From positions 12,516-76,515 of IMG/VR virus record IMGVR_UViG_3300006092_000059: a stretch of 64,000 nt of DNA. The stretch is one strand, 5' to 3'. Both the position numbers and the translations under genes were made by a program. The stretch is from a virus. Its lineage: Duplodnaviria; Heunggongvirae; Uroviricota; Caudoviricetes. Below are positions 1 to 44,427 of this stretch, in pieces (positions within the stretch are counted from its first letter, which is position 1; every line of letters starts with the position of its first letter). The notes under the pieces are model-generated. The model worked only from the letters and a program-made list of their open reading frames with translations. It had not been told where the DNA came from and did not search any database.

Positions 1-1
1 T

Positions 2-535
2 AATAAATATGGATATGATTCTTTTAAATTTTTTATTTTAGAGAAATGTTCTAAAGAAATTCTACAGAATAAGGAGCAATATTATATTGATAATTTTAAA
101 CCTGAATATAACAAAAGAATAATTGCTGATTCAAGTAGAGGATTAAAATATGGCCCACAAAGTATAGAGCATAAATTAAAGACTTCTAGGAAATTAAGAA
201 AATTTTCTGATGAATTAGTAAAAGAAATTAGAAATCTAGCTAATTCTGGAGTTACCTATAAAGAAATAGGTGAGAGATTAAACATTAATCATAATTCTTT
301 ATCTAAATTAGTTAATGGTAGAACATATGTTGATTTACATAAAGGTAATATAAAACCTATAAATAAAAATATAAGATCTAAGCTTACAAAAGAGAAGATA
401 GTAGAAATTTATTATAAAGCTTTAAATAAAGAAAATCAGTATAAGTTAGCTGAGGAGTATAATGTAACACAAGGAACTATTTCTAGAATAAAAAATGCTA
501 AAAGAGACTATTCATGGCTAATTGTAGAATTATAA
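2..535 (+). CDS. GIY-YIG homing endonuclease, C-terminal part (5' end truncated by the window edge)
   Basis: Frame 2 translation reads ...KYGYDSFKFFILEKCSKEILQNKEQYYIDNFKPEYN, the end of a GIY-YIG catalytic domain as in I-TevI. It is followed by an HTH/NUMOD-like segment (GVTYKEIGERLNINHNSLSKLVNGRTY). The stop is at 533-535, overlapping the start of the giant ORF. Confidence 0.55.
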   Translation, partial: NKYGYDSFKFFILEKCSKEILQNKEQYYIDNFKPEYNKRIIADSSRGLKYGPQSIEHKLKTSRKLRKFSDELVKEIRNLANSGVTYKEIGERLNINHNSLSKLVNGRTYVDLHKGNIKPINKNIRSKLTKEKIVEIYYKALNKENQYKLAEEYNVTQGTISRIKNAKRDYSWLIVEL

Positions 536-3500
536 GAAATAAGGATGGTATTATAGAAAAGGTATTTGCTAGTAATGGCGAAGAATCTATTCTATATAAG
601 AATTTATTAGGATTAGTAAATAATCTAGCAGATGATAAATTTACTGATTTACAAAATCTATATAAACAATTCCAAGAAATTGGAATAATTAAAGGATTAT
701 CAAAATCTGAAATAGCTCTTGCAATTTATAATAGAATACATAGTCCTAATTTTTTTAACTTTTTTGGAGATTGGGTAAATGACCCTGAAAATTCATCTAA
801 AGTTGTAGATAAGAATGGTGAACCATTAATTGTCTATCATGGTACATCATCACAATTTGAAGAATTTAAAAAAGAAAATATTAAACGTGAAGATGATTTA
901 AGATTAGGAAAAGGTTTCTATTTTACTAATAAAATAAATGAAGCTGCTGATTGGGCTACTGATTATGCCTATCAATATGAAGGTGAAACTAGTAGTGATG
1001 TTTATAGGAGAGGATTAATAATGCCAGTATTTCTTAATATTAGAGAAAATAAAAAAGATGGTATTATAGATGAATCTGTTATTTCAAAAAATACTTATGG
1101 AGAATATGTAGCTTTTAATCCAAATCAGATAAAATCTATATTTAATAAAGGAGATTTTTCATCAAGTTCAAATGTGTTTAGTACAAGAACAAATGAACCA
1201 TCTGCTTTTAATTATAGTGGATTTACTAAAGAAGTTGGATTAAATAGAAAGCAAATAGATACTTCTAAAAAAGCTAAGATTAATAAAGCTGTTCAGAAAT
1301 ACAACCAAAAACATGGAACTTCTTATTATATTAAATGGGCTCAAGTAGGACAATCTAATCTAGAAACTTGGAATATTATAGATAATAAACCTGTTAGTTC
1401 TAAAAAAGAATTTGATTCTGCAGTTGATTTTAGTGTGTCTAAAGAAGATAAAGAACTTAATCATGCAAAATGGTTAGGATTGTGGAATTTTTATAGTGAT
1501 AGACAAAAGATATCTAAATCAAATGATGTTCTAAAAAGAATAGCTGATGATTCTACTTATTTGGGATTGTTAGCTAATAAACTATTACAACATAATCATA
1601 ACAATGTTGATATTCTTTTCCTTACAAGAGAGGAATTAAATGATTATATTGATAAACATGACATTAGATTTTATGAAGGAGTTAGTGTTAGTAATGTAGA
1701 GGGATTTTATGATCACAATACTAATCAAATTGTAATGGTAGATAAGCCTACAGGTAAACTTGCAGGTAATTTACTAGAAGAAATTATACATGCTCTTACT
1801 GTTCAATTTATTAAACATGATGAGAATGAAGGAAGAAAATGGAAAGAACTTTATCTTAAAGTAAAAGAAGAGTTTTCTAAGGAAGGAAAAGATAATTATT
1901 ACTTTACTAATGAGTATGAGTTCTTAGCAGGAGTATTAAGAGATGGTGAGTTTCAAAAATTATTAGCAGGTAAGCCTTCTAACTCAACTTGGTTCTTAAA
2001 CTATTTCCATGAGTTGTTTAATCACTTATTAGATTTAATGACTAAAGTATTTGGTTTAAATTTTAATGAACGTACTTTACTTTATGATGTATATGAGGCG
2101 GGTTCTAGAGTAATTGTACAATCTGCAAGAAGAGCTGATGATTTCTCAGGATTAAAGTCAGATGCATTTGAGTATGTATCTACTACTCTTACTGATGAAC
2201 AAAGAGAAATAATGAGAGATGAGATTTCTTATTTGTCAGAAGAATTAAATAAAGAGTATAACAAACCAGCTCTTGAAAAGATTACAAATGAGCTTTATGA
2301 AGCTTATTCTAAAAGACTTAAGAAAATTGAAGATCACAGATCCTATAAAGATATTAAGGAATTATTTAAAGGTGAAAAGGTAAGTAGATATAAAGCTATT
2401 ACAGATCAGTTAGAAAAAGCTTCACAGGCTAGTGCTACTCCAGAAGGATTAGCTAGAAAAGCTCGTGCTATAGCTTCTGCTATTGTACAGACTAGTTATT
2501 TATTAGATATTACTGCACCTCATATAAAAGATATAATTCGTGATAAGGATGCTGTTGAAAATATACACACACTTCAATATTACTTGTACACACTTTCAGA
2601 TTGGGAAATTACTTTTAATGAAGCTAAAGAACTAATAGGAGAAAGTAATCCTGCTGCTAATAGATATCTTGCTATTAACTTAGATAAGATTGAAAACATT
2701 TATAAAGATATTGCTAAGAATGATGAAACTGGAATGGTAGAAGCTTTAAAGCCTATATTAGTACCAGCAGGTGAGAAATTTATAGAATGGGCAGAGAGAG
2801 AAGAAGCCACTGTAGAAAGTATACGTGATAAAGCTGTTAGAAGAGGAGATACAGACTCAGCTGAAGTTCAGTCTAAAAGATTATTAGATCTTAGAGCTGC
2901 AAAAGAAAGAGTTGATTTCAACAATGATAAAGCTATAATTAAATTTCTTAAAGGTCAAATGGGAGATACTAATGTATTTTCTATGTATCTTGAAAGTTTT
3001 AGAGATAGTCCAGATCCTATTGTAGGTGGATTTACTGCTTTCATTAAGAGAAATCTTGATGAGATAGGTGGAGATATTGCTACTATGCAAATACACTTTG
3101 AACAAGAACTAGCTCCTATCTATAAACAATTAGGTGGAAGATTTGATGCTGAATCATTAGGAAAAGAAATAACTTTTGAGGATAAGAGAGTAGATGGTCA
3201 AGGAGTAGAGTATACTGTTCCTGCATTTCTTAATCCTTTTAAAAACTATAAAGCTGATGAAAAATTATTTAAAAATGCTATTTATAGTTTAGAAGAAAAA
3301 GTTAATGATAAAACAATAACTCCAGAGGAAGAACAACAACTTATTGAGAAGAAAAAAGAATATGCTAGATGGAGAGTTAGTAGTTTGCATAATCCATTTG
3401 TAGATGAGTTTTATAAAAAATACGAGTTATGGGATGATGAGATTGGGCAACTATTAAAATTAGATGTTGATAGAATATTTAGTGAAGTTGATAAGATCCA

Positions 3501-6500
3501 AGAACCTCATATATTCATAGGAAGTGAATTATCTCAAGATGAGTTAGACCAAATAGATGCTTTATACAAAGAGTATTTTTATTTAGGAAATATTACTAAT
3601 CTGGATGGTAGTGCAAAAACTGGAATTGAGTTACAGAAAGCTCTTAGAATGAAAGAAATGAGAGCTTTAAATGTTAAATTTTATGAGTGGGTAGATAATA
3701 TTCCAGCATTTGAAAAAGCTAAATTGGATCATCAGGAAACCTTAATTTCTTCTGGAATCTTAGAAGGAAGTATAGAGTTTAGAGATGCTATGTATAAGTG
3801 GGAAGAAGATAATACTAGGTCTTTTACAGATCCTGCTTATTATGCTGAAAGAGAAGGTAAGATAAGAAAGTTAAAAATTCTTATGTCAAGAGCTACTGAT
3901 GCTAAACTAAAAGAATCTATATTAGCTCCTTTGTATAAAGAACTAATTGACCAAGTATATGGATTAAGAGATGAAGATGGACAACCTGTTGGTAGTGAAA
4001 TTAGTGCATCTAAAACTAAAAGACTCAAGGAAGTTCAAGAACAAATAGAAGCTGAAAGAGAGAAATTTACTGGTATTTCAGGACTCAATGATGATGAAAA
4101 AGAAAGACTTAGTGAGTTATATGATAAGAAGTATTCTGAAGGTTTAAATACAGCTGAGGAAGAAGAATTCAATAATTTAATAGCACAGTCTGATAAACTT
4201 GGAATGCATAAAAAAGATAGAGCTGAAATAATTTCATTATTTACAGAACTAAGAAATATGCAGTCAAGAGTTCCTACTCCTTACTATGTAGAAAGTTTTA
4301 ATAACAACTCAAGTAGACTTGGTATTACTTTGGATGATAGAGGTAATATTCAAGAAGGAGCTGATTTTATTTCTATTCTTGATAGTAGTAAATTATTCAG
4401 ATTATTAGATGACCCACAATTTAGAACTTGGTTTGAGGCTAACCATATTCAAGTTTTAAGATGGGATAAAGATTCTGGAGGTAAAATTCCTAAATGGGAA
4501 AGATTATATCAATGGAGTAAAGTAGTTCCTAGCAATCCTGATTATATTAAGAGAAGACCTGCTTATAAATATTCATATAGAAGAGTTAAAGATGAATATA
4601 GAACTGAAAGAATTGTAGGCAAGACTGTTGATATAAAAGGTGACTGGTTGCCTAAAACTGTAGAAGAAGGTGGAAGTGTTGATTATAGAAATGAAAAATT
4701 CTATGCTTTAAAAGAAAGTGCAGAATCTGGTAATCAGCGTAATAAACTAATATATCAATACTTACAAACTAATTTAAAATATCATTTTAAAGTTCAGGAT
4801 GGAATTCCTAATGTTAATAAATTAGGACATGATTTGCCTAAAGTCAGAAAAGAAACTTCTGCTCGTAATCTAGATCTGTTAAAGAAACCATTAGAACTTC
4901 CTGGCTTAATGTGGGCTAGATTTGTAGATTATTTGAGGTCACTTCGTGAGTATAATACAGATAGTGGAAACTTTGAAGAAGTAGATGGTGAATTAGTTTC
5001 TAATGATTATCAATTAGTGTATGCAGATAAATATGGAACTGAGCTTAACTCAATTCCTATGAAGTATATAACAAGAATGGATGCTGAGAATGTTTCTTTA
5101 AATACTCCTAGATCTATAATGAAGTATGCTTATGCAGCTGCTACTAATAAAAAACTAATAGAAATATCACCTATTGCCCGTACTTTACAAAGAGTGTTAG
5201 ATAATCCAATTAATGCTCCTATTGATGTTAAAAAGAAAATACGTGGTAATACTAAGCAATCTCCTATATTAGGATCTAATAGAAGAAAAGAAGCTGTTGA
5301 TTTTATTATTAAGAGAGAATTTGAAGGATATCAAAAAGCCTATGAGTTAGGTAAATTTGCTGATAGTATGGTAAGTTTACTTAAAAGATTAGGTAGTTGG
5401 TCTTATCTTAAATTTAATATTCCTTCATCTATTGCAAACGTAGTAAATGCTGTTAATCAAAACTGGATTACTGCTGGACAAGGATTTTATTCTTCCAGTG
5501 ATTTTGCTATGTCTGCTACAGATATGTTTAGTAGATTTATTCCAGCATGGCAATCTGACTATTGGATAAATGAGCTTGGAACTAAAAGTCTTGAGGGACA
5601 AATGGCTGAAAGATGGGAATTTATGCAATCTTCAAGTATTGAGGAAGAAGCAGGAGAAAAGTTTGGAGCTAGTATATTGAAAGACTTTGCTGGATTTAAT
5701 TGGATGTTTAATCACAGAGAATGGGGTGAATATTATGTTCAAAGTAGAATTTGGTTAGCTTATCTTAATGGGACTAAAGTAGAACAAACACTTCCTGATG
5801 GTAGTCTTAAAACTCTAGCATTAAAGGATATTTATGAACTTGATGATAATGGTGTAATCAAACTAAAAGATGGTGTATCTGAAGATTGGGGATTCAAAGG
5901 TGAGGAGTTTCTGAAATTAAAAAATACTATTCAGAAGACTATTAGAAACACTCATGGTGCTTATGCTAACTTTGATAAATCAATGGCTGAGCAATATACA
6001 GCTTATAACTTTGCTTTATTCTTAAAGAAATGGTTTATAAGTATGTTTATGCAAAGATTTTCTGCTTCTAATGTAAAAGTTAGTAAAGGTGGAATTACCT
6101 CTACACCTAGATTTAATACTGATGCAGGTTATCAATGGGGATATTATATGGCAGGATTAAATGCTGCTAGTAAACAATGGCAAACTGGACTAAATAACTG
6201 GGCAGATTTAACAGCTGAAGAGAAAGCTTCACTATGGAGAATAGGTCATGAATTAATGGTGGTATTAGCTGCTAGTTTTATAATTCGTATAATAGCAGGT
6301 ATTGATTATGATGATAAAGATCCTTATAAATCATTAAAGGATATGAATTGGTGGGAACTTCAAATGTTATATCAAGTAATGCGTTTGCAAGTAGAAACTG
6401 AAACTTATGTCAGCCCTACACAGTATGCAGACTTTACATTACAATTCATGGCATTTGAGGCTGCTAAGAAGTGGGGTAGATTACTAATATACATAATCAC

Positions 6501-6663
6501 ACAGGAAGAGTATAAAAGAAAAACTGGAGATTATAAGAAGGGTGATAAGAAATGGAAAGCTCAATTCCAGAGAGCTACAGGTTTGCAAGGAATTAGTAGA
6601 ACATTTGATAAGCCTGAAGATTTAGTAAAATCTTATGATAAGAATATTAGGCCTCATATTTAA
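514..6663 (+). CDS. Giant polyvalent (probably virion-packaged or injected) protein with an N-terminal PARP-like H-Y-E ADP-ribosyltransferase domain; long coiled-coil body and a C-terminal hydrophobic segment
   Basis: Uninterrupted 2049-aa ORF. Residues ~100-210 carry IVYHGTSS ... LGKGFYFTN ... YGEYVAFN. These match PARP catalytic HGS ... GKGIYFA ... YNEYIVY (the His, Tyr and catalytic Glu positions). A TM-like stretch LMVVLAASFIIRIIAGI lies near the C-terminus. Confidence 0.8.
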   Translation: MANCRIIRNKDGIIEKVFASNGEESILYKNLLGLVNNLADDKFTDLQNLYKQFQEIGIIKGLSKSEIALAIYNRIHSPNFFNFFGDWVNDPENSSKVVDKNGEPLIVYHGTSSQFEEFKKENIKREDDLRLGKGFYFTNKINEAADWATDYAYQYEGETSSDVYRRGLIMPVFLNIRENKKDGIIDESVISKNTYGEYVAFNPNQIKSIFNKGDFSSSSNVFSTRTNEPSAFNYSGFTKEVGLNRKQIDTSKKAKINKAVQKYNQKHGTSYYIKWAQVGQSNLETWNIIDNKPVSSKKEFDSAVDFSVSKEDKELNHAKWLGLWNFYSDRQKISKSNDVLKRIADDSTYLGLLANKLLQHNHNNVDILFLTREELNDYIDKHDIRFYEGVSVSNVEGFYDHNTNQIVMVDKPTGKLAGNLLEEIIHALTVQFIKHDENEGRKWKELYLKVKEEFSKEGKDNYYFTNEYEFLAGVLRDGEFQKLLAGKPSNSTWFLNYFHELFNHLLDLMTKVFGLNFNERTLLYDVYEAGSRVIVQSARRADDFSGLKSDAFEYVSTTLTDEQREIMRDEISYLSEELNKEYNKPALEKITNELYEAYSKRLKKIEDHRSYKDIKELFKGEKVSRYKAITDQLEKASQASATPEGLARKARAIASAIVQTSYLLDITAPHIKDIIRDKDAVENIHTLQYYLYTLSDWEITFNEAKELIGESNPAANRYLAINLDKIENIYKDIAKNDETGMVEALKPILVPAGEKFIEWAEREEATVESIRDKAVRRGDTDSAEVQSKRLLDLRAAKERVDFNNDKAIIKFLKGQMGDTNVFSMYLESFRDSPDPIVGGFTAFIKRNLDEIGGDIATMQIHFEQELAPIYKQLGGRFDAESLGKEITFEDKRVDGQGVEYTVPAFLNPFKNYKADEKLFKNAIYSLEEKVNDKTITPEEEQQLIEKKKEYARWRVSSLHNPFVDEFYKKYELWDDEIGQLLKLDVDRIFSEVDKIQEPHIFIGSELSQDELDQIDALYKEYFYLGNITNLDGSAKTGIELQKALRMKEMRALNVKFYEWVDNIPAFEKAKLDHQETLISSGILEGSIEFRDAMYKWEEDNTRSFTDPAYYAEREGKIRKLKILMSRATDAKLKESILAPLYKELIDQVYGLRDEDGQPVGSEISASKTKRLKEVQEQIEAEREKFTGISGLNDDEKERLSELYDKKYSEGLNTAEEEEFNNLIAQSDKLGMHKKDRAEIISLFTELRNMQSRVPTPYYVESFNNNSSRLGITLDDRGNIQEGADFISILDSSKLFRLLDDPQFRTWFEANHIQVLRWDKDSGGKIPKWERLYQWSKVVPSNPDYIKRRPAYKYSYRRVKDEYRTERIVGKTVDIKGDWLPKTVEEGGSVDYRNEKFYALKESAESGNQRNKLIYQYLQTNLKYHFKVQDGIPNVNKLGHDLPKVRKETSARNLDLLKKPLELPGLMWARFVDYLRSLREYNTDSGNFEEVDGELVSNDYQLVYADKYGTELNSIPMKYITRMDAENVSLNTPRSIMKYAYAAATNKKLIEISPIARTLQRVLDNPINAPIDVKKKIRGNTKQSPILGSNRRKEAVDFIIKREFEGYQKAYELGKFADSMVSLLKRLGSWSYLKFNIPSSIANVVNAVNQNWITAGQGFYSSSDFAMSATDMFSRFIPAWQSDYWINELGTKSLEGQMAERWEFMQSSSIEEEAGEKFGASILKDFAGFNWMFNHREWGEYYVQSRIWLAYLNGTKVEQTLPDGSLKTLALKDIYELDDNGVIKLKDGVSEDWGFKGEEFLKLKNTIQKTIRNTHGAYANFDKSMAEQYTAYNFALFLKKWFISMFMQRFSASNVKVSKGGITSTPRFNTDAGYQWGYYMAGLNAASKQWQTGLNNWADLTAEEKASLWRIGHELMVVLAASFIIRIIAGIDYDDKDPYKSLKDMNWWELQMLYQVMRLQVETETYVSPTQYADFTLQFMAFEAAKKWGRLLIYIITQEEYKRKTGDYKKGDKKWKAQFQRATGLQGISRTFDKPEDLVKSYDKNIRPHI

Positions 6664-6725: not shown

Positions 6726-7025
6726 ATGGAAACAACACAAGAAGTTCAACAAGAACAACCAATTCAATTTGCATACAGACCTGATGCAAAAATTACAATT
6801 ACACTTGAAGGGTGGCAATTTAACCAACTTCAAATGGCATTAAAACCTTTTGAAGGCCCTTTGGCTACTATTAATAACATTCATAACTTTATGATTCAAA
6901 CAGGGATTTCTAGACCTGTTTATATTAAAGATGTGGATAAGAATGGTAACTTAAGAAGTGATTTCTGGGAAGCACCTAAAGAAGAAACAGCACCAACTCC
7001 TAAAATAGAGATAGTGCAAAGCTAA
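6726..7025 (+). CDS. hypothetical protein
   Basis: 99-aa ORF directly after the giant gene on the same strand, followed by a terminator-like hairpin. Confidence 0.45.
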   Translation: METTQEVQQEQPIQFAYRPDAKITITLEGWQFNQLQMALKPFEGPLATINNIHNFMIQTGISRPVYIKDVDKNGNLRSDFWEAPKEETAPTPKIEIVQS

Positions 7026-7079: not shown

Positions 7080-7376
7080 TATAGAGTCTTTAAATCTTTC
7101 TTGTATAGAGGAAGGAAAGGTTGAATAATATTTTGAAAGCCTTTCAAATAAAATATCTAATTGATCTTGAGTAAGATCATTTTCATAAACAGTAAAATAC
7201 TCACATTGTTTTCCCTTTTCACACTTTGTAAATGTGTAAGTTCTTTCATCTTTTCTTCTAATTTTTTCTTGCTCTATTTTCCAATCTTCCATGAATTGAG
7301 CAGTTTTATTTTTATATGGCATACTACTTAGGTTCAAAGTCAAGTCCATGTTCTTTAACATAGTTACATATTTCAA
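7074..7376 (-). CDS. hypothetical protein (start may be the internal Met at 7322, immediately after the SET gene stop: TAGtATG)
   Basis: ORF in the same orientation as its neighbours. Its 5' 50 nt overlaps the upstream gene unless the start at 7322 is used. Confidence 0.4.
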   Translation of the reverse strand: MKYVTMLKNMDLTLNLSSMPYKNKTAQFMEDWKIEQEKIRRKDERTYTFTKCEKGKQCEYFTVYENDLTQDQLDILFERLSKYYSTFPSSIQERFKDSIK

Positions 7377-7704
7377 AATAATTAGAAGTTATTTCTTCTC
7401 CAGCTTTGATATTTTGTTTAGCAAATGTGCCCTCTTTATTGTCATATGTATTAGGAGTAGTAGAATGATTAATATGTCTAGCTTCATCTATACATACTAT
7501 CCATAAATTATTTTCTAGGTAAGCGTATTTATACAAAAATTTTGTTTCTAACTCATTCATTAGTTTCACAGAATCAAGTGAGTATTCTACGTCCATTCCA
7601 GGAGTAAATTCCCAAATCTTAGTATTTTTAGGTATTAAGTTTTTAGCAAATAAACCTATTCCTTTTCCTTGTGATTCTTTTAATTCTATTTCTACTTTTA
7701 ACAT
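7324..7704 (-). CDS. minimal SET-domain protein (putative protein-lysine methyltransferase, vSET-like)
   Basis: GKGIGLFA (GxG AdoMet motif), ARHINHSTTPNT (corresponds to RFINHSCxPN, with Cys replaced by Thr) and GEEITSNY (corresponds to ELTFDY). 126 aa, similar in size to chlorovirus vSET. Confidence 0.6.
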   Translation of the reverse strand: MLKVEIELKESQGKGIGLFAKNLIPKNTKIWEFTPGMDVEYSLDSVKLMNELETKFLYKYAYLENNLWIVCIDEARHINHSTTPNTYDNKEGTFAKQNIKAGEEITSNYFEICNYVKEHGLDFEPK

Positions 7705-8558
7705 AATTCATTAATATTTAAAATATCAATACTATTATCTCCATAATTAGTAACAATTACTTTATCTCCCTTGCTTGCAATTCCATGTGGAAAATCAAAT
7801 CTTTTTATTTCTCCTTTGTTCTCAAGTTTATCATTTTTTAATATAAAGTGTAATAAACTATCTTGACCTTGTAATGTAATAAATCCATTCTCTCCTGTTA
7901 AAGCAAGACAATCTGTTTGCCCATAAAATGGTAATTCAGCTAATTTTTTAAAACTAGGAAGCTCATATAAATACAAAATAGAATCAGTAATTTGTATAGG
8001 ATCTAATGATGGCCTACTATCAGATGTAGCTAATAATAATCTATTATTTAATAATAATAATAGATCTTTTGGATAATAATCAAAATTCTTAAATACTTCA
8101 TATTCCCCTGTTGGTAGATTAAAGATTAAACATTCTCTTCTTTTAGTATCAGTATTTGTAATAATAACATTATCCTGATCTATTATTCTACAACCATGAA
8201 ATTGATTAAAGTCTTTTCTTACTATATCTTTTACAAAAGATAATTTTCTATAATACTTGTCAACTTTATAAACTGATATACAACAAAATTCACTTCTTAT
8301 TGCTCTATTAGAAGTCATTATAATTCCATCCTTATAATCCATTAAATCTGGATGATAAGTTGTTTTTATCTCATCTATAATCACAGGATCTTTACTAATA
8401 TCTATTAGATATATAACTTTACCTAAATAGGAAGCAACTGCAATTAAATTATCATCAATAAAACATACAGCAGTAGCTGTGGCATATCTACTTCTTCTAC
8501 CAGCATATACTTTGTAGTATCCAGTAAGATCTATATTAGGAAGTTTGAATTTCATCAT
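7698..8558 (-). CDS. hypothetical protein, YVTN/NHL-type beta-propeller-like repeats
   Basis: C-terminal VIVTNYGDNSIDILNI resembles YVTN beta-propeller repeat signatures. Similar repeated segments occur through the protein. Confidence 0.3.
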   Translation of the reverse strand: MMKFKLPNIDLTGYYKVYAGRRSRYATATAVCFIDDNLIAVASYLGKVIYLIDISKDPVIIDEIKTTYHPDLMDYKDGIIMTSNRAIRSEFCCISVYKVDKYYRKLSFVKDIVRKDFNQFHGCRIIDQDNVIITNTDTKRRECLIFNLPTGEYEVFKNFDYYPKDLLLLLNNRLLLATSDSRPSLDPIQITDSILYLYELPSFKKLAELPFYGQTDCLALTGENGFITLQGQDSLLHFILKNDKLENKGEIKRFDFPHGIASKGDKVIVTNYGDNSIDILNINELC

Positions 8559-9252
8559 ATTTTTTTATTATTTTTTCAGGATTTTTCCAAGTTTTACTTT
8601 TTACTCTTTGAGCTATAATTCTTTGATATTCTAATCGTATTTTAGACTTCGTATTAGTATCAGCTTTTATAGTAAGATTTCTATCATGTATTCTTCTATT
8701 AAAAATAATAGTAGTAAGAGTAGCAGATTTGGCTCTGTTAAAGGTTAATCTATGTAAAAATTCTTCATCTGCACTACACTTCCAATTTTCATAACCATTT
8801 AGTTTATTAAAAATAGATTTTCTTATACCTATTACTCCACATGCTATTTCTATTTTTGCACGATTCATTCTACCATTTAGTATAGTAAAGTCTTGAAATT
8901 TTAGTCTTACTACATCTACAACTCTTATTAGATTATAAAATGATTGAACTAGAGTAGGTAGCATAGTATCATCACTATCAAAAAATATTATATATTCATA
9001 TTTAGCCTCATTTACAATATTATTTTTAACAGAATATGTTCCTACATTTTCTTCAAAATAAAAAACTCTACATCGCTTATAAAATTCTTTATTATCTTGA
9101 ATACTCTTCAGTGTTCTTTCACAATGATCCACACCTATAATAATATCTATGTCAACATTAGTTTGTTGATTATAGATAGACTGAATACATTCTTTTAGGT
9201 ATTCAGGTGTATTAAAAGTTGGAATTATGATTGAGACTCCTTTATCTGACAT
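8536..9252 (-). CDS. glycosyltransferase family 2 (GT-A fold)
   Basis: N-terminus SIIIPTFNTPEYLKECIQSI ... DIIIGVDHCE is the typical GT2 opening. An FDSDD DxD-like motif is present. Confidence 0.6.
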   Translation of the reverse strand: MSDKGVSIIIPTFNTPEYLKECIQSIYNQQTNVDIDIIIGVDHCERTLKSIQDNKEFYKRCRVFYFEENVGTYSVKNNIVNEAKYEYIIFFDSDDTMLPTLVQSFYNLIRVVDVVRLKFQDFTILNGRMNRAKIEIACGVIGIRKSIFNKLNGYENWKCSADEEFLHRLTFNRAKSATLTTIIFNRRIHDRNLTIKADTNTKSKIRLEYQRIIAQRVKSKTWKNPEKIIKKYDEIQTS

Positions 9253-9974
9253 TGTTTATTATAATTATAAAATTCTTCAAGAGTTTTTGTCCTCTTTACA
9301 TGATCTCCACTTCCTCTTTCAATTTTTTCTTTCCATTCTGGTAAAGATCTAGTATAAATATGTTTTATCCATACAAACTTAGAATGATGCCTACAAATAG
9401 GCCTTTTTACTTCTAAACCATCTTCATTAATATATCTACCTTTAATTATAGCTTTATGTGGATCTGGAAAATTTATAACAGCAGATGGTCTTACAATAGA
9501 TTTAATATGACCATTAGTATGATATTGATTATATTTTTCTATTGGTTGTCTTGTTTCAAAGTAAGGGTCATTTCCATACATTCTCCATGATAATCCTAAA
9601 GCATCAAACTTACCATATAATTTTTCTAATATAGTAAGATCTTCTTTTACATTCATAGTATTAGATGTATAAAATTCATCCGTATCTATAAATAACATCC
9701 AATCTATTCCTGTATAAGGTATAACTTGTTCACATGCATGTTTATAAGCTCTACACTGACTTCCTACCTCATTATCTTTCCAAGTATATACTGAAACAAT
9801 ACCAGGTTTTATAATACCTTTATCAGTAAGTTTATTTCTTAATTCACCTATACAATTTTTACTACCATTATCATATATCATAAAATGGTCAAACCCCACC
9901 TTTATATGGTGGAGTAGCCATTCTTCTAAATATTCATTTTCATCTTTTATAATAAGACAAACTGCAGTTTTCAT
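9225..9974 (-). CDS. GT-A-like glycosyltransferase (Glyco_tranf_2_4 / GT92-like)
   Basis: CLIIKDENEYLEEWLLHHIKVGFDHFMIYDNGS pattern and an LFIDTDEF DxD motif. Confidence 0.4.
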   Translation of the reverse strand: MKTAVCLIIKDENEYLEEWLLHHIKVGFDHFMIYDNGSKNCIGELRNKLTDKGIIKPGIVSVYTWKDNEVGSQCRAYKHACEQVIPYTGIDWMLFIDTDEFYTSNTMNVKEDLTILEKLYGKFDALGLSWRMYGNDPYFETRQPIEKYNQYHTNGHIKSIVRPSAVINFPDPHKAIIKGRYINEDGLEVKRPICRHHSKFVWIKHIYTRSLPEWKEKIERGSGDHVKRTKTLEEFYNYNKQCQIKESQS

Positions 9975-10339
9975 TTTACTTCTATAAGTACTTGTTTTTT
10001 AAAGTTATAAATATATTTTGCATGGTTAGCATTCATTAAAAAATGAGATAATTCTTCACACCATATATCTATACTTAATTCACCTATAGTAGTTTTAATA
10101 CCTCCATAGCTATTAATAGTATAAGAATTAAAGCCTCTATTATTTATTAAAGCAGCTATAGTTCTTGTAGTAACTTGAAATAACTCTCTGTTAGGAACTA
10201 TTATATCAAAGTCATTTGGTTTTTCATCTTTAAGAAGTTTTTCTAAACAACTTCCTACTATCCATCCTTCTGATATTAGTAATAAACTAATAATTTCTGC
10301 AGGTAAATCTCTATAAAATTTATTCTTTATATTTTCCAT
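9971..10339 (-). CDS. hypothetical protein, minimal nucleotidyltransferase-like
   Basis: WIVGSCLEKLL ... NDFDIIVPN resembles the GS ... DxD core of Pol-beta-superfamily nucleotidyltransferases. Weak. Confidence 0.3.
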   Translation of the reverse strand: MENIKNKFYRDLPAEIISLLLISEGWIVGSCLEKLLKDEKPNDFDIIVPNRELFQVTTRTIAALINNRGFNSYTINSYGGIKTTIGELSIDIWCEELSHFLMNANHAKYIYNFKKQVLIEVK

Positions 10340-12078
10340 TAATTTATTTGTCTAAATGTAATTTCTGGATTATTTTCAAGCCATATACTTAATAATCTTT
10401 CAAGTATAAACGTATGAAAAGTATAATAATCTAGACCAGTTTGAAGTTTTAAAGCATCTGTTGGTAAGCCTGCTTTATAATTAGCATTAGTAAATGCTTC
10501 TTCTTTAAACTCAGTTTCTAATAATTCAATAGCAGGTTTTATTACCTCATTTATATATTTTTTGTATATAGAGTATTTTCCTATCCAAAAATTTGAATAA
10601 ATGATATTTTTAGGCTCAATTAATTTTAAATTAAGCTTATGACATATTTTAGTAAATAGACTCAAAAATCCTGGATGAGAATATTCCGTAAAAGCCAAAT
10701 AATGTTTTTTTATAAAACTAGGAGATAATCCTATTATATCAGGAATTCCTTCAGCTTTTAACTCATTAAATATCTTTGTTACTAACTTTTTAGGAAGTCT
10801 TGTTTTATATGGAAACTTCCAACTAAATATTCCTAAATAATCATTATCTTTAAAGTCATTATTATCAATTAAATTAATAATAGGATTATACTCAAATAGA
10901 TAACTTTTTTCCTCTACAGTTCTAATTGGGTTGTATATAGGAGTATATTCAGTAGATTGATCTAAAGTATAAGTTATTCCATAAATTTTTAAATCTTCTG
11001 GAGTAACTTCTGTTGATTCATTCATTAGGAATTCACAAGCTAATCTTAAATTATCAATTCTTTGCTCAAAATGATTATTAGTTTTTACAACTTCAGAAGC
11101 TTCTTTTCCTACTTTTTTGAAAGATCTATCTTTTACTAAACTTTTAACCCATCCATAATATTCAGATGTCTTCTCAGCAGGTAAAATTGTTGATACCTCT
11201 TTATCAATATAAAGAGAACTTCCTATTACAGGAATTTCTTTACAAGCAGCTTCTATTAGTTTAAGAGAACTTTTACATTCTGCAAATTCACTCTTTTCAA
11301 GTGGAGCTAATAAAATATCTATTTTATCATAAAGATCCATATATGAATCAGTAGATTTACCTTCTAAGACCTCTACTTCCATTTTTGGATTAACTTTAAA
11401 CAAGGATACAATCTTGTCCCATTTCTTATTAGGTTGATATCCTGCTATAGTAAATTTACATTTTTTTTGTATGTCACTATCATTAGCTAACTTTTGAACT
11501 GTAGTTCTAAGTAACTGCCAATCACTATAATGGGCTAATCCTCCACAAACACCTATAGATATCTTACCATTAGATTCTTCCTTTTTAGGAATGAACTGAT
11601 TTTCTCCTAAAGGTAGAAAATTAGGACTAATTGTTACATATTTATTAAAACTTACACAATGAGCAGCTAATCTTTGTGTTGATACAGTTACTATATCTGC
11701 AAGCACTATTAAACCTATTAAAGAACTATAATCAGTTTTACTCTGTATATGATTTTTAGGAAGTTCCCAAAAGTCATCAACATCTTGAACTAATTTAAAT
11801 CCATATTTAGATTTCCAGCCAGATATTTGAGCAATTGGATTAGAATAGATCCAATTTACCCAAACAATATCGTAGTTTTTAACTACTTCTTCTTGTAATT
11901 CATACTTACCTGGTTCATGTTCTAAAATATCTACCTCAATAATTGCCTTTTCTCCTTTTATTTCAATTTCTTTACCCCTTAAATAAGAAAGGGGAAGAGC
12001 CACACGGTGATACCTTGAGCCACTTCCCTTCTCTATTAATCCTAAAATTTTTACTTGTTTCATCTGGCAAATATACAA
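10339..12078 (-). CDS. GT-B-type glycosyltransferase-like protein with an extra C-terminal domain
   Basis: KSSLKLIEAACKEIPVIGSS resembles the GT4 E ... GLPLIEAMACGxPVI motif. The ~220-aa C-terminal extension is unassigned. Confidence 0.35.
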   Translation of the reverse strand: MYICQMKQVKILGLIEKGSGSRYHRVALPLSYLRGKEIEIKGEKAIIEVDILEHEPGKYELQEEVVKNYDIVWVNWIYSNPIAQISGWKSKYGFKLVQDVDDFWELPKNHIQSKTDYSSLIGLIVLADIVTVSTQRLAAHCVSFNKYVTISPNFLPLGENQFIPKKEESNGKISIGVCGGLAHYSDWQLLRTTVQKLANDSDIQKKCKFTIAGYQPNKKWDKIVSLFKVNPKMEVEVLEGKSTDSYMDLYDKIDILLAPLEKSEFAECKSSLKLIEAACKEIPVIGSSLYIDKEVSTILPAEKTSEYYGWVKSLVKDRSFKKVGKEASEVVKTNNHFEQRIDNLRLACEFLMNESTEVTPEDLKIYGITYTLDQSTEYTPIYNPIRTVEEKSYLFEYNPIINLIDNNDFKDNDYLGIFSWKFPYKTRLPKKLVTKIFNELKAEGIPDIIGLSPSFIKKHYLAFTEYSHPGFLSLFTKICHKLNLKLIEPKNIIYSNFWIGKYSIYKKYINEVIKPAIELLETEFKEEAFTNANYKAGLPTDALKLQTGLDYYTFHTFILERLLSIWLENNPEITFRQIN

Positions 12079-12686: not shown

Positions 12687-13144
12687 TAGTCATAAATTGG
12701 AAAAAAGTGACTACAAGTACCAAAAGATGTACCAAATAATTTTTTAATTATAAGATATTCTTCTTCAGTAATTTCTTGTATATTCAAATTACTAAAGTAA
12801 TCTTCCTTGCTATAGAAAGTTAAAGATTCATTAGTACCAAATCCAAGTTCATATTCTTTTCTTCTAAATTTATGATTCCATTTATCTGGTTCTTTTAAAT
12901 ACTGCTCATAGGTAACAATAACACCATGTTTATTTTCCTTTGAAGGATATTCAATATACTTATTATAAGAACTTATTTTATCAAATTGTTCTTCTGTAAC
13001 ATTTCCTACTTCAAAAAAGGTATCTAATATGTCTTCAGTTTTCTTTCTATTCTTAAGATAATCTGTCTCATTACATATTATAAAAGCTTTTACATCAAAT
13101 TCATCAGCGTAATCAGCTGACATCTTAATTAAATAATATTTCAT
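12686..13144 (-). CDS. hypothetical protein (N-terminus paralogous to the 13949..14458 product)
   Basis: MKYYLIKMSADYADEFDVKAFIICNETDYLKNRKK aligns with MKKYYLLTFNEDWADEHYVPALECFTEEDFNKWKK. Confidence 0.4.
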   Translation of the reverse strand: MKYYLIKMSADYADEFDVKAFIICNETDYLKNRKKTEDILDTFFEVGNVTEEQFDKISSYNKYIEYPSKENKHGVIVTYEQYLKEPDKWNHKFRRKEYELGFGTNESLTFYSKEDYFSNLNIQEITEEEYLIIKKLFGTSFGTCSHFFPIYD

Positions 13145-13962
13145 TAAATTAATTCATTTAAAGATTTTATTCGTTTATATCCAACATTATATCGTTGATT
13201 ATGTGGAGTATCATATAAGAAAGTACATATACCTGCTTTATTTAAAGCTATGAAATTATCATAACAATCATCTACAAAGATATCAATCCCACTCTCTTTA
13301 GCCACTTCTACTTTGGATTGTCCACTTCCTACACAATATACAGGTTTTGTTGGAAATCCATGCATATCAAGCCATTTAATTGTAGTTTCAACAGGAATAG
13401 GTCTAGATGTAATATAACAATGAGGTTCAAAAGGAATATCTGTTGGTTTTAACAAAGGTTTTAATCCTAAGTAAAAATCATTAAGAGTTCCTTTTTCTCT
13501 CATAGCATCAAATCTATTTCTAATTTCTCTATCAAAATACCAAGCTGTAGCTACATCTTTAATATTGTGAAGCTCTCTCCATGCATTAATCCAATCACAC
13601 AACACTTCATCAATATCTAAGCCTATTTTAGGTGTTGCTAGATAGTTGTGAGGTCTATCATCTCCTTGTGGATAAATCTTATAATAATCAACTAGGAACA
13701 TTGCATTACACATTACATGAGCTGCATGTAGCAATCCAGTTTCTTTATCAAAATCTTCTCCACTTTCAATAGCAGTAAGATGTCTTTTTAGACTTCCTAT
13801 TACTCTGCTCCATTTCATTCCTTTCCGCCAATTATTATCAGCATATTTAGCTGCTCCGAAGGTTAATACTTTTGCTAATTCATTAATAGCAGTAGGTGAG
13901 AGCAAATCCTGCCTCACCTTACCACTATCAAATCTTAATCCTTTGTCTTCATTCTGTTGCAT
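13144..13962 (-). CDS. bifunctional nucleotide-sanitising enzyme: N-terminal all-alpha dATP/dGTP-diphosphohydrolase-like (MazG-related) domain fused to a HAD 5'(3')-deoxyribonucleotidase
   Basis: N-terminus LRFDSGKVRQDLL ... AAKYADNNWRKGM ... LLHAAHVMCNAMFLVDY matches the phage dNTP-diphosphohydrolase N-domain pattern. The C-terminus has HAD motif I GLDIDEVLCDW, as in NT5C DxDGVL. Confidence 0.5.
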   Translation of the reverse strand: MQQNEDKGLRFDSGKVRQDLLSPTAINELAKVLTFGAAKYADNNWRKGMKWSRVIGSLKRHLTAIESGEDFDKETGLLHAAHVMCNAMFLVDYYKIYPQGDDRPHNYLATPKIGLDIDEVLCDWINAWRELHNIKDVATAWYFDREIRNRFDAMREKGTLNDFYLGLKPLLKPTDIPFEPHCYITSRPIPVETTIKWLDMHGFPTKPVYCVGSGQSKVEVAKESGIDIFVDDCYDNFIALNKAGICTFLYDTPHNQRYNVGYKRIKSLNELI

Positions 13963-24305: not shown

Positions 24306-25982
24306 TTAATACAAACTATCTAGAATTCCATTACTATAAGCAAATTTCTTATCTCCATCAAATTCAATGTTATTTGCGATAACATCTTCTTTCTTGGTAG
24401 CTTCTGCTATTTGCTCTTTTCTATGTCTAATATAACCAATTAAATAATTAGCTACATCTTTTCCTGTAGTATCTTCGAAATCATAATTTCCAAAGTAATC
24501 AGAAAAACCATGTAGAATATCTTCTAATGAAGGTTTTATTTTACGACTAATAATTTCTTTTGTATATCTTTCTGCAAAAGTAACAATTCCTACACAAATA
24601 AACAACCAATTAGATATTTTTGTGAAATTAAAAGTTGGAGTATGTATTCTAAATTCTAAGGTACGATTTGCACTGAATATTAAAGAATTAAAATTTACAA
24701 GATAGTATCTTGTAGGTATGCCCCATTTTTGCCCACCAAGAGGGTGAATAAGAGAGGTCATATTATAAGAGTCATTCATTTCTGGAACTTTCCCATCAGT
24801 TAAAAACTCAAATATTTTATTAAAATTCTTTCTTACATCATTTGAAAATTCGTGCTTAGTATTGTATATCTTTTTGTACAAAGAGTTAGTCATTATTCCT
24901 ATATTAGGAAGTCTTTGATTGTATCTCTTCTGTTTTCTTAAATATTTTACTTCATCTGATTTATATAAAGGAAATATAGAATAAATTTCATCTTGGATAG
25001 TTTGCATTATTATCCAATATGCTAGAATTGTAAGTTCATCATATTTTATATTACCAATATGTATATGCATTGAACATGTAGTATCAAACTCACATTTACT
25101 GTTGAGTTCACCACATATTCTTTTAATAGCTTGTAATCCTTTGTCCCCTTGCATAGGAACTGTTGTATATTCATAAGGCTCTATACCAGAAGCTCTTCTT
25201 AAACTACCATCTTTTAAAGGAACTAATCCTAAAGGCCCTAAAAGCTTTTGTGGAACAGTACCATTACAAGACTCTAGCTCAATACCAAATGTTTTTCCAA
25301 ACAAAAGTTTGCTAAGTTCTGATGTACGCTGATTTGATGGATACACTGTTTTATCATACATATCTTTGATAGTACGAAATGAAGGATTTCCTGCTGATGC
25401 ACTATAATCAAATGGTAGATTTTTATATCTTATAACTCTGGGAGTTACTATACTTTTTAATTCATCTTTATCAAGATTACTTTTTTTGTAGTAGAGGTCA
25501 TTCCATTTACATGGAATATATCCCATTGCTAAAGCTATTTTTTCATTCAGACAGGCTGTTGTTTGGGAAGTATGATATCTTTCAACTGTTTCTACAACTT
25601 CTTCAGTTCTTTTAAAGAAAGCTCTATTTCCTTTAGTGTCAATAAATCCTTCTATAAGATCTTTATTTTGTTGTAATTCTTCTATTAATTCATATTTACC
25701 TGTAGTAAAATTTAAACCAATCTTACCACTTGATAATCTATACCATTCTCCATCAGAAGCATCATCAGAATACCCTATCCAGAAACAGGTTACGCCTTTT
25801 TCATGATATTCTTTATGATTCTTATAATAGATACATTTACTTCTTGGTACAACTTTTCCTTCAACTGTTTTTACCTGTTTTTCCTGAGTAATTTCCATAC
25901 CTTTCTTTTTTTTAGAAGACAATTGCCGTTTCGGAGTTAACTGGATTTTGGCTTTTTTGCTCTTCTTTTGTAATGTGCTCAT
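24306..25982 (-). CDS. amidoligase (COG2170 / YbdK / GCS2-like carboxylate-amine ligase) with a Lys-rich N-terminal tail
   Basis: KTFGIELESCNG matches the YbdK TLGIELE substrate/Mg site. CSMHIHIGN matches YbdK GQHVHVGC. The first 28 codons (KKSKKAKIQ ... KKKKG) overlap the GATase gene by 70 nt; an alternative start is at 25898. Confidence 0.55.
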   Translation of the reverse strand: MSTLQKKSKKAKIQLTPKRQLSSKKKKGMEITQEKQVKTVEGKVVPRSKCIYYKNHKEYHEKGVTCFWIGYSDDASDGEWYRLSSGKIGLNFTTGKYELIEELQQNKDLIEGFIDTKGNRAFFKRTEEVVETVERYHTSQTTACLNEKIALAMGYIPCKWNDLYYKKSNLDKDELKSIVTPRVIRYKNLPFDYSASAGNPSFRTIKDMYDKTVYPSNQRTSELSKLLFGKTFGIELESCNGTVPQKLLGPLGLVPLKDGSLRRASGIEPYEYTTVPMQGDKGLQAIKRICGELNSKCEFDTTCSMHIHIGNIKYDELTILAYWIIMQTIQDEIYSIFPLYKSDEVKYLRKQKRYNQRLPNIGIMTNSLYKKIYNTKHEFSNDVRKNFNKIFEFLTDGKVPEMNDSYNMTSLIHPLGGQKWGIPTRYYLVNFNSLIFSANRTLEFRIHTPTFNFTKISNWLFICVGIVTFAERYTKEIISRKIKPSLEDILHGFSDYFGNYDFEDTTGKDVANYLIGYIRHRKEQIAEATKKEDVIANNIEFDGDKKFAYSNGILDSLY

Positions 25983-27654
25983 CTAGATATAACCAGGCTT
26001 CATCAAGCCATTTTACTAATTTTTTTCTTAAACTTTCTGTAACTGGAAGAATTTCACTAGTTTCAGGATCTTTACTAAAATCCTTATCAGCTAATGCTTC
26101 AGAAGCTTCATTTACTGTATTCATTGCAGCTATATAAACATTTAACATATCTACATCAGAATCAGTAATAGCACTATGCATTACTTCTGCATTTTCTTCT
26201 TCGTCTTCTGTATTATCTGTAAGTTCTAGAGTATTCTGTGATGGTTTAGTATAAGTACATTTCTTAAAGAAACCAGTAGAGAATTCATAAACTTTACCCT
26301 GATTAAATAAAGGAGTAAATTTACCTGTAATATAAGCATCAACACTTCCTCCAATAGTATTATAACCACCTTCTCTTAGGTTGTCAAATAATAAGGTTCT
26401 AGCACTGAATTTTCTTTTAGTAGCAGGATCAAAATTCCAAGAATGTTTAGTTCCTATTTTTCCATCTAATTTACCTTCAGAATATAATTTACAAATATCT
26501 TTTAAATCTTCTTCAGAATTTAATAACCAGCCATTCCAGAAATGATACACTTTACCTGTACCAGAATAATTTTTACTTGAAGGAGCATTTCCATTCTCAT
26601 CTAATAAATAACTAACACCTTCTTTTAGTTTCTGACCAAGTATATGTCCATTTTTATGATATCTACCTTTAACAAACACTACTCTATCATTACCAAAAGG
26701 ATTAAAGAATGGCTCATCTTCAATTAGAAAATCCCCATTATTGTCTCTACGGGTGATTTGATCAGCCTTTTTAACCAACTTTTCTGGGTATCCGATGAAG
26801 ACTTCACTAGCTCTTCTCCTGTTACTGCCGCTAGAAGTTGTAGAACTCCCACTACTGGAACTGCTCGTAGTAGTTCCCTTGCTCTCTCGATTAAATTGTT
26901 TCTTTAATGTTGAAATTTGTCCATCACTTATAATATGGATTTTATTAGGTTCAAAAGCTTTTATACAACCTTCTTTATCATCATCATCACAAATTGCCAT
27001 TAATGATTCTTTAATAGATGAAATATAAACTGCTTTTTCTCCTCTTTTTTTCCAATAAAATAAAGGTCTTTCACCAGTAGAGTCTTCACCTATACTAGAT
27101 TTACCTCTAAATACATACAGTTTATTCTCATCAGTAAAACTCCATAAAAGAGCCGCATAACCTTCATAATCATTAAGTACATTTATATTAGTTTCAGTTG
27201 CTCTACTATCTACTAAGATATTTAAAAGCTCAATACTGTCAACATTATATTTATACTTACTGCCATATTTAGTTCTTAATTCTTCTCTGTTTCTGATAAT
27301 ACCATTATGTGCACCTACAGCATATGGAACTACATTTTTTAATCCTACTTTTTTTCCTTCTTTATGATTTTCTTCTGTATAAAATCCAAATGGGTGAGCA
27401 TTATCTTCAGTATGACTTCCTACTGTAGACTTTCTTGTATGACCTATTACAGTAAAATATTTTTTGATTGGTTTAAGTGAAGTTGCTTCAATAAAATTGA
27501 AAACATTAGCCTTAGCTCCTACCCCTTTTTTTAATAAACCATCCCAGTAAATACCACAACTATCATCACCTCTTCCGAGATTGTACATCCATAAAATTTT
27601 TAATTTGTCAGGATCAGGTGCTGACACACCATTATAACCTACTAATCCGCACAT
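25912..27654 (-). CDS. class II (Ntn) glutamine amidotransferase domain protein with a Ser/Thr-rich linker and an unassigned C-terminal domain
   Basis: N-terminus MCGLVGYNG has the catalytic Cys at position 2, as in PurF/AsnB/GlmS-type amidotransferases. It has an internal SSSSSGSSTTSSGS low-complexity linker and no PP-loop SGGxDS. Confidence 0.7.
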   Translation of the reverse strand: MCGLVGYNGVSAPDPDKLKILWMYNLGRGDDSCGIYWDGLLKKGVGAKANVFNFIEATSLKPIKKYFTVIGHTRKSTVGSHTEDNAHPFGFYTEENHKEGKKVGLKNVVPYAVGAHNGIIRNREELRTKYGSKYKYNVDSIELLNILVDSRATETNINVLNDYEGYAALLWSFTDENKLYVFRGKSSIGEDSTGERPLFYWKKRGEKAVYISSIKESLMAICDDDDKEGCIKAFEPNKIHIISDGQISTLKKQFNRESKGTTTSSSSSGSSTTSSGSNRRRASEVFIGYPEKLVKKADQITRRDNNGDFLIEDEPFFNPFGNDRVVFVKGRYHKNGHILGQKLKEGVSYLLDENGNAPSSKNYSGTGKVYHFWNGWLLNSEEDLKDICKLYSEGKLDGKIGTKHSWNFDPATKRKFSARTLLFDNLREGGYNTIGGSVDAYITGKFTPLFNQGKVYEFSTGFFKKCTYTKPSQNTLELTDNTEDEEENAEVMHSAITDSDVDMLNVYIAAMNTVNEASEALADKDFSKDPETSEILPVTESLRKKLVKWLDEAWLYLDEHITKEEQKSQNPVNSETAIVF

Positions 27655-43950: not shown

Positions 43951-44427
43951 CTATTCTTTTACTTGCCAGTCAATTTTAGGACAATATTTACCTTTAAAAG
44001 ATTTCCAACCTTCTCCTATAATATCTGAGGTTTCAGATAAATTACGTGATACTGAACTCTGTGGAAATACTTCTTTAAAGTAATAAACGATTAATAATAT
44101 TACCACTGATACTGCTAATATAATTAACAATGGCCCAAGAATTGCCCAGAATCCATGTTTTACAGTAGTACCAATAAATACTCCTGCAAGTGAAAGAACT
44201 GCATAAGCCATCAATGTATTAACAATATTTCTTCCAAATGCTCCTGTTTCTCCACTTATTCCTTTATAGATAAGCCCAATCCAAGTAATAGGTAACATTA
44301 GGGTTGCCCATACTAATGCCCAGAAATAATCACAGAAATTTTCATTTGGTTCATCATTTCCAAACCATCCTGCATAATTAAGTTTCCAGAATTTATAATG
44401 CCACGAGTTGTTTTTTGTAAGTTTCAT
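43951..44427 (-). CDS. integral membrane protein
   Basis: 158 aa with ~4 predicted TM helices, immediately downstream of the NAMPT gene. Confidence 0.4.
   Translation of the reverse strand: MKLTKNNSWHYKFWKLNYAGWFGNDEPNENFCDYFWALVWATLMLPITWIGLIYKGISGETGAFGRNIVNTLMAYAVLSLAGVFIGTTVKHGFWAILGPLLIILAVSVVILLIVYYFKEVFPQSSVSRNLSETSDIIGEGWKSFKGKYCPKIDWQVKE

Follow-up and report, generated by a model that had tools for sequence, protein, structure and literature searches.

Three large proteins of phage crAss001, namely gp47, gp49 and gp50, have been detected in virions by mass spectrometry and are called capsid cargo proteins (PMC10172136), and for phage phi14:2 Drobysheva et al. reported that both genes flanking the virion RNA polymerase (vRNAP) code for proteins of the virion, that gp65 and the proteins orthologous to it have a zincin-like protease domain, and that the three products are joined as a single polyprotein in some phages. 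Here, we examine a relative of gp49 and gp65 encoded on 64,000 nucleotides of DNA from a virus of the Caudoviricetes (positions 12,516 to 76,515 of IMG/VR record IMGVR_UViG_3300006092_000059), the whole of which is called the window below. The gene lies at 514..6663 on the + strand, has an ATG start and encodes 2049 amino acids (aa), as the initial annotation had it, and its product appears to be a gp49/gp65-type virion cargo protein with an accessory ADP-ribosyltransferase (ART) domain.

ARTs are the commonest protein-modifying domains in injected phage “polyvalent proteins” (Iyer et al. 2017, PMC5512222). These polyvalent ARTs have a His on strand 1, a Tyr on strand 2 and an acidic residue on strand 5, belong to the Tox-ART-HYD2 clade, kin of PARPs and of the cholix and diphtheria toxins, and occur in 1-12 copies, some of them fused to N4-type virion RNA polymerases (Iyer et al. 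2017, PMC5512222). Their functional model is Alt of phage T4, a head-packaged ART that is injected with the DNA and modifies the host RNA polymerase and other proteins (PMC5512222).

The protein encoded in the window is best explained as a crAss-like cargo orthologue of gp49 and gp65 that carries an extra, apparently intact ART-PolyVal domain. We give this a probability of about 75%, a figure that covers the explanation as a whole: orthology of the scaffold, insertion of the ART, entry into the host with the polymerase, ADP-ribosylation and a disulfide through Cys4. The explanation builds on membership of the ART-PolyVal family with an intact H-Y-E site, homology to gp49/gp65, a place after the vRNAP gene and a single, N-terminal cysteine.

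The ART-PolyVal domain spans aa ~75-215 (736..1158, + strand) and has a leader, F..FFGDW...SKVVDKNGEPLIVYHGT. The motifs picked out in the initial annotation are present, YHGTSS from aa 108, LGKGFYFT from aa 131 and YGEYVAFN from aa 195, and supply the catalytic candidates H109, Y136 and E197 (codons 838-840, 919-921 and 1102-1104). A Pfam scan, which that annotation had proposed as a check, matched PF18760 (ART-PolyVal) on aa ~99-215 with 66.6 bits (E=5e-18) when aa 1-300 served as the query and 54.8 bits with the whole protein, the curated cut-off being 31.2. DUF3990, from the same clan, stayed below threshold, and the PARP family PF00644 had no match at E<=1 in any tile of the protein.

An AlphaFold model based on a multiple sequence alignment (predicted local distance difference test, pLDDT, of 83), which superseded a single-sequence run on aa 1-300 (pLDDT 41), has an ADP-ribosyltransferase fold. 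Its nearest structures are PARP catalytic domains, R-S-E toxins scoring lower, and H109, Y136 and E197 lie on model strands 48-52, 76-79 and 138-141, which are strands 1, 2 and 5 as in active ARTs. Eukaryotic PARPs (PF00644) are thus the best structural neighbours and share the H-Y-E triad, HG[ST] and G.G.YF with the domain, which differs from them in its 9-19% identity, in having no regulatory/helical subdomain and in giving no hint of polymer formation; the likeness to PARPs is one of fold and motifs only. The R-S-E signature (Arg, Ser-x-Ser, Glu) of Alt, ModA and ModB from T4 and of VIP2 does not fit the sequence, and Alt, a member of the R-S-E clade without family-level homology to this H-Y-E, PARP-like domain, serves as a functional model only. 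The Pfam match and the fold neighbours thereby bear out the call of a PARP-like H-Y-E ART. Its distinction from the Alt type stands, and the novelty claimed for it does not: the class was described in 2017 and crAss-phage counterparts are already labelled in UniProt, where the cr130_1 match (A0A7M1RT64) is named “ART-PolyVal-like domain-containing protein”. In a structure search of BFVD the same cr130_1 protein, gp80, was the top match (E=1e-13), and others were found in cr271_1, cr116_1 and “CrAss-like virus sp.”.

To place the active site within the family, a hidden Markov model of the domain was iterated over the best 120 database relatives, yielding 372 domain copies (154 full length, up to 14 per protein). 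Among the full-length copies the H109 column holds His in 146, the Y136 column Tyr in 70 and Phe in 47, and the E197 column Glu in 48, Asp in 22 and Gln in 13. The site pattern of the family is H-Y-[EDQ], and the protein studied here retains all three residues. Many unrelated polyvalent proteins (among P0004-P0120 of the relatives) have 2-14 tandem copies separated by a spacer, ...QIKLADGTNTTFD..NPDIRF; most of these copies may be non-catalytic, because Tyr is replaced by Phe and the acidic residue is lost in many. An ART-PolyVal leader (SPEF..KFGDW.N...V.EDGEPL; 35% identity, E=2e-8) is also found at aa 37-122 of the phi14:2 vRNAP gp077 (L012 9310-9570), whose N-terminus has no catalytic YHGT; it may be an independent module or the leftover of a lost ART.

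The polyvalent ARTs of PF18760, including the N4-like vRNAP fusion of Roseovarius Plymouth podovirus 1 (Iyer et al. 2017), are of the same domain family and, as here, belong to giant, predicted-injected proteins with a link to a virion RNA polymerase. The present domain differs from them in being a single copy (up to 12-14 in others) and in having E where D is quoted for the prototype, and it sits on a crAss gp49-type scaffold beside a two-barrel polymerase, whereas that of Roseovarius Plymouth podovirus 1 is fused to a T7-like N4 polymerase.

The identity of the scaffold emerged from tblastn against deposited phages, in which aa ~1505-1984 matched crAss-like genes annotated “putative RNA-polymerase subunit”. 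In cr85_1 the matched gene (1351 aa) comes after a giant “putative RNA polymerase” that matches the solved phi14:2 vRNAP (6VR4, 2e-31), and the 1351-aa protein itself has no 6VR4 match; the equivalent pair in crAss001 is gp50, the polymerase, and gp49, the scaffold protein. An RNA polymerase subunit was rejected on these grounds. A polymerase motif in the DYDDKD of the protein was likewise rejected, as this patch is not conserved as DxDxD and follows a hydrophobic helix, the real motif, DFDIDK, being in the giant encoded upstream. By BLASTP the protein matches the cr85_1 gp49-like protein at E=1e-15 and crAss001 gp49 at 5e-10. The C-terminal module that defines the gp49/gp65 cargo family covers aa 1350-2047 (4561..6654, + strand) and was recognised by BLASTP, tblastn and a profile, here called profile A4, made from the C-terminal 700 aa of nine relatives, which matches crAss001 gp49 at 6.5e-59 and phi14:2 gp076 (the GenBank name of “gp65” of Drobysheva et al.) at 1.9e-34.

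We therefore regard the protein as a probable orthologue of phi14:2 gp65 (Phi14:2_gp076, 1421 aa) and crAss001 gp49 (1349 aa), whose presence in virions is established, in both cases by mass spectrometry. Both share with it the C-terminal module, a zincin-like region and a single N-terminal Cys, and both are encoded directly downstream of the vRNAP and convergent with the replication module; unlike it, they have no ART, are 600-700 aa shorter and show only ~21-22% identity. The protein is identical to P0001, encoded on a 33.7-kb metagenomic contig (L002) that shows what precedes it. There, a 4097-aa gene, a 220-aa open reading frame (ORF), a 229-aa GIY-YIG/HTH gene and then the gene under study follow each other on one strand. 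The 4097-aa gene (L002 1-8686) is predicted from its sequence to encode a vRNAP of the crAss two-barrel type: ~800 aa align with crAss polymerases (E=2e-17 to 3e-25), including the invariant GSDFDxDK (DFDIDK here). N-terminal to the polymerase core it has a YHEAWH zincin segment like that of gp47, and it looks like a collinear fusion of gp47-like and gp50-like parts. The order of polymerase giant, scaffold protein and convergent replication genes recurs in P0002, P0003, P0011, P0025, cr130_1 and phi14:2, and the position after the vRNAP is conserved in at least seven loci, the two large genes abutting directly in P0002, P0003 and P0011.

The scaffold family is very large. An exhaustive search with profile A4 returned 4032 cluster representatives at E<=1e-3, of which 1896 also reach E<=1e-30, and in these the module is always C-terminal and most proteins have 1.9-3.2 thousand residues; a word-indexed search with the C-terminal 570 aa gave zero matches, not even the query, which reflects its sensitivity limit. 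Only 4 of 121 apparently full-length new family representatives (~3%) have an ART-PolyVal-like domain, against 113 with HExxH. The ART is therefore an occasional payload, inserted in a common scaffold immediately behind its N-terminal motif.

The closest counterpart with both parts is gp80 of cr130_1 (YP_010113265.1; UniProt A0A7M1RT64), a protein of 2074 aa that has an N-terminal Cys5, an ART-PolyVal and a zincin-like domain, and matches aa 19-597 of the present protein (BLASTP E=2e-20, 24% identity). Its gene comes directly after that of a 5801-aa giant ending in ...KNHCKGGK and is followed by convergent replication genes, as here. It differs in its canonical HELLH, in having eight cysteines instead of one, and in its C-terminal part, which was not found by pairwise BLAST. 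The gene (L010 8872-15096) has 31 TAG codons in frame and TAA as its stop, which fits TAG recoding; TAG reassignment is known in some Crassvirales. The phage studied here is a distant crAss-like phage, given that its PolA has its nearest relatives among Crassvirales polymerases, with no more than 30-32% identity, and that megablast of the DNA against phages gave no match.

Cys4 (codon 523-525) is the only Cys in the 2049 residues of the protein, where 29 would be expected from the 1.43% Cys of the window's other proteins (P=6e-12). The first Cys stands at position 8 or earlier in all 14 backbone relatives, most of which have no other, and in the independent set of 121 family members it falls within the first ten residues in 117, with exactly one Cys in 92; the four exceptions, with no early Cys, look like starts called too far downstream. 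In all five readable upstream polymerase giants an invariant Cys stands 0-7 residues before the C-terminus, with 1-3 Cys in 1700-3300 visible residues, and the giant upstream of the present gene has it three residues from the C-terminus (L002 8677-8679 region). In crAss001, gp47 has one Cys, three residues before its end, gp50 has Cys5 and Cys2404 (of 2412 residues) plus one internal Cys, and gp49 has Cys5 only; cr85_1 shows the same pattern, and PolA and ribonucleotide reductase (RNR) of crAss001 have ordinary Cys content. In phi14:2, the one Cys of gp078 is its last residue, the polymerase gp077 has Cys at 3 and 2179 of 2180, and gp076 has Cys at 3, which makes four cysteines in the 5398 residues of the three cargo proteins, every one of them terminal. 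The pattern is complementary along the gene order, C-terminal in the upstream protein, N-terminal in the downstream one and at both ends in the polymerase. A lipoprotein site was rejected for the N-terminal Cys, which occupies one of residues 3-8 and is preceded by neither a signal peptide nor a lipobox. The cargo cysteines are unmentioned in the crAss001 atlas, the phi14:2 polymerase preprint and the polyvalent-protein paper, and a wider literature search found no mention either; as far as the literature could be searched, this terminal-cysteine rule is unreported.

A precedent exists in the pre-ejectosome of cyanopodophage A4 (PDB 9k3a; gp26-gp29), where a disulfide joins gp27, through Cys1715 close to its C-terminus, to Cys5 of gp26 (PMC12002296). 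This phage belongs to another group and has no virion RNA polymerase, and its pre-ejectosome shows no detectable sequence homology to the present protein. From this precedent, the placement of the terminal cysteines and the richness of crAss001 virions in structural disulfides, we tentatively propose that crAss-type cargo proteins (gp47-like, vRNAP and gp49-like) are linked head to tail by disulfides into one ordered ejection chain. In the present phage, Cys4 would pair with the Cys three residues from the end of the upstream polymerase giant, a step that we hold with less confidence than the rest of the mechanism; the cargo, payloads like the ART included, would be stored, and perhaps ejected, as a head-to-tail chain and be freed by reduction in the cytoplasm, and polyprotein fusions, including that of the gp47-like and gp50-like parts here, would have a peptide bond in place of the disulfide.

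In the mechanism that we favour overall, the protein would be enclosed in the capsid and ejected into the host upon infection. An N-terminal single-Cys motif, a zincin-like domain, a long backbone and a C-terminal module with one hydrophobic helix make up its gp49/gp65 scaffold, on which one ART-PolyVal domain with an intact H109-Y136-E197 site has been inserted. It would enter the cell together with the virion RNA polymerase, and the ART, on the model of T4 Alt, would use host nicotinamide adenine dinucleotide (NAD+) to ADP-ribosylate host macromolecules at the onset of infection. If it acts as Alt does, the transcription or translation machinery of the host is a plausible target, whose modification would favour the phage's own polymerase. 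The zincin-like domain may have a role in processing or activation.

Several points weigh against this explanation. To our knowledge, no ART-PolyVal domain has been biochemically assayed, and with many copies of the family having no acidic residue or no Tyr, the fold alone is no proof of activity. The Foldseek E-values of the model to PARPs are weak (6e-3). The zincin motif has Glu in place of the first His of HExxH (1777-1791). Identity to gp49 and gp076 is only 21-22%, and the phage itself is uncultured, the evidence from virions being that of orthologues. For the cysteines, the gut phage cr130_1 has terminal ones in both proteins with extra internal ones, so that Cys depletion is not universal, and no crAss-like virion structure shows the cargo termini.

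The cysteine points bear on the most durable of the alternatives, in which the terminal cysteines serve metal binding, a covalent adduct, or a processing or packaging signal, or reflect avoidance of internal Cys in an oxidising capsid. Cys depletion is moreover common in virion proteins generally, and one of these roles is a real, if uncertain, possibility. Disulfide pairing fits the complementary placement along the gene order in phi14:2 and crAss001, has the A4 disulfide as a precedent, and agrees with the fusion of these proteins in some phages and of the gp47-like and gp50-like parts here; the missing signal peptide and lipobox also speak against another role for the Cys.

An active ART might instead act on nucleic acid or on its own cargo, through regulation of the vRNAP or modification of DNA or RNA ends, and not on host proteins. 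We consider this unlikely, as the top structural neighbours of the domain are protein-modifying PARPs and diphtheria-type toxins and Iyer et al. place the family among protein-modifying ARTs. Somewhat less probable still is an ART that is dead or purely structural, on a protein that serves ejection or packaging only, as a scaffold, channel or polymerase chaperone. The domain is dispensable for the core role of the scaffold, 97% of the family being without it, and in many ART-PolyVal copies the Tyr is replaced by F and the E position is held by a non-acidic residue. The phi14:2 vRNAP, too, keeps the leader motif only, its catalytic His gone, and the A4 pre-ejectosome protein gp28 contains an ART-like alpha+beta domain that has no assigned activity and that the paper does not name an ART. 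Against a dead domain, the present copy retains H, Y and E together with the HGT and GxGFYFT signatures, and the model puts the three residues on the strands that carry them in active ARTs. That the protein is not packaged at all, but an ordinary intracellular late or early protein whose likeness to cargo reflects domain sharing, would suit the low identity to gp49 and proteomics that come from orthologues only, yet it is very improbable given that homology is seen in the N-terminal motif, in the zincin-like region and in ~600 aa at the C-terminal end, that the place after the vRNAP is so widely conserved and that both characterised orthologues are virion proteins.

Returning to the cargo protein with its inserted ART, the remaining features of the scaffold can be followed from the N-terminus. 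The motif that contains Cys4, MANCRIIRNKDG...S.LYKNLL (514..633, + strand), has similar counterparts at the start of crAss001 gp49, the cr85_1 gp49-like protein and phi14:2 gp076. A small domain at aa ~207-288 (1132..1377, + strand), the sole region with pLDDT ~77 in the single-sequence model, is common to P0002 aa 71-151 (BLASTP 32.5% identity, E=2e-8). The zincin-like domain at aa ~333-545 (1510..2148, + strand) has no Pfam match; phrog_37402 matches aa 392-523, and BLASTP aligns the region with phi14:2 gp076 aa 172-336 (E=0.002). Its motif reads E422-E-I-I-H426 ... Y-F-T-N-E-Y-E-F, corresponding to HExxH...Y.FTN..EF in relatives: LLEEIIHA…YYFTNEYEF here aligns with LILHEIMH…YGFTNVHEF of phi14:2 gp076, so that EEIIH stands against HEIMH, and HExxH is also found in cr130_1 gp80. 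EExxH in place of HExxH recurs in the independent members P0011, P0057 and P0054 and in crAss001 gp49 (EEFAH, aa ~240), which points to a variant metal site that is tolerated, and not to random decay.

The middle of the backbone, aa ~590-1349 (2281..4560, + strand), is collinear by BLASTP with P0002, P0003, P0006, P0011, P0014, P0025 and P0038, has no recognisable domain and gave no Pfam, NCBIfam or PDB sequence matches. A C-terminal hydrophobic segment, also noted in the initial annotation, is present as a conserved helix at aa 1914-1932 (6253..6309, + strand; Kyte-Doolittle mean 2.01, far the strongest in the protein) and is followed by the acidic DYDDKD patch, helix and patch aligning with the helix and D-rich patch of crAss gp49-like proteins. 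PDB sequence searches with the whole protein, the ART profile and the C-terminal profile were empty, as was the NCBIfam search, including a “PLxRFG” lead taken from the name of one match. With an ART-PolyVal and a zincin-like domain in 2049 aa, the protein has the two or more unrelated effector or enzymatic domains that mark a giant protein of a phage or conjugative element as polyvalent in the sense of Iyer et al. 2017; it is a minimal case, the zincin being part of the scaffold itself. The observations and the core interpretation of the initial annotation hold, and the ART is an ordinary annotation of a described family on a described cargo protein.

The gene is the only large one on the + strand inside the window, as had been stated, and this does not extend to contig L002, where the 4097-aa gene precedes it on the same strand. 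The “homing endonuclease remnant” reported next to it proved to be an artefact of the window edge: only the 3' part of a GIY-YIG/HTH homing endonuclease gene (1..535, + strand), whose stop overlaps the start of the cargo gene, falls in the window, and the intact gene between the vRNAP and cargo genes is whole in the longer contig (L002 9333-10022, 229 aa; Pfam GIY-YIG 4e-11, HTH_3 2e-7). In cr85_1 an HNH endonuclease comes after the gp49-like gene, and the vRNAP/cargo junction seems to attract homing endonucleases. Directly after the cargo gene lies a 99-aa ORF with no Pfam match (6726-7025, + strand); in L003 and L009, too, the homologous gene is followed by small ORFs on the + strand. Just downstream, and convergent, is a 126-aa SET-domain protein (7324-7704, - strand; Pfam SET 4e-11), SET being an unusual methyltransferase type for a phage.

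The window has a G+C content of ~29%, and outside the cargo gene nearly all of it is taken up by - strand genes for replication and nucleotide metabolism, including PolA, RNR, primase, helicase, NAMPT, amidoligase and glycosyltransferases. A NAMPT-like gene (phrog_448, 3e-132) adjoins a phosphoribosyl pyrophosphate (PRPP)-synthetase-like gene (Pfam Pribosyl_synth) at 44393-46875 (- strand). The two are combined as in NARP1, a phage pathway of NAD+ reconstitution (Namat + Adps), and form a probable NARP1-like pair, which could protect against defences that deplete NAD+ and also secure a supply of NAD+ for the ART. Further - strand genes (8536-12078, 13144-13962, 24306-27654 and 42931-43749) encode three glycosyltransferases, an amidoligase, a glutamine amidotransferase and a phiEco32-type COOH-NH2 ligase, along with a dATP/dGTP diphosphohydrolase N-domain protein (1e-34) with an NT5C-like part, a combination that suggests nucleotide or DNA hypermodification.

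For the biology of crAss-like phages, these results make the ART an optional payload on ~3% of a very large scaffold family and tie a predicted NAD+-using effector to the virion RNA polymerase module, in a phage that also has a probable NAD+-reconstitution gene pair. In the crAss001 atlas the cargo proteins could not be resolved. The terminal-cysteine rule, if true, would provide a simple mechanism for ordering proteins of 150-450 kDa for ejection through a podovirus tail, and would then matter more than the ART annotation.

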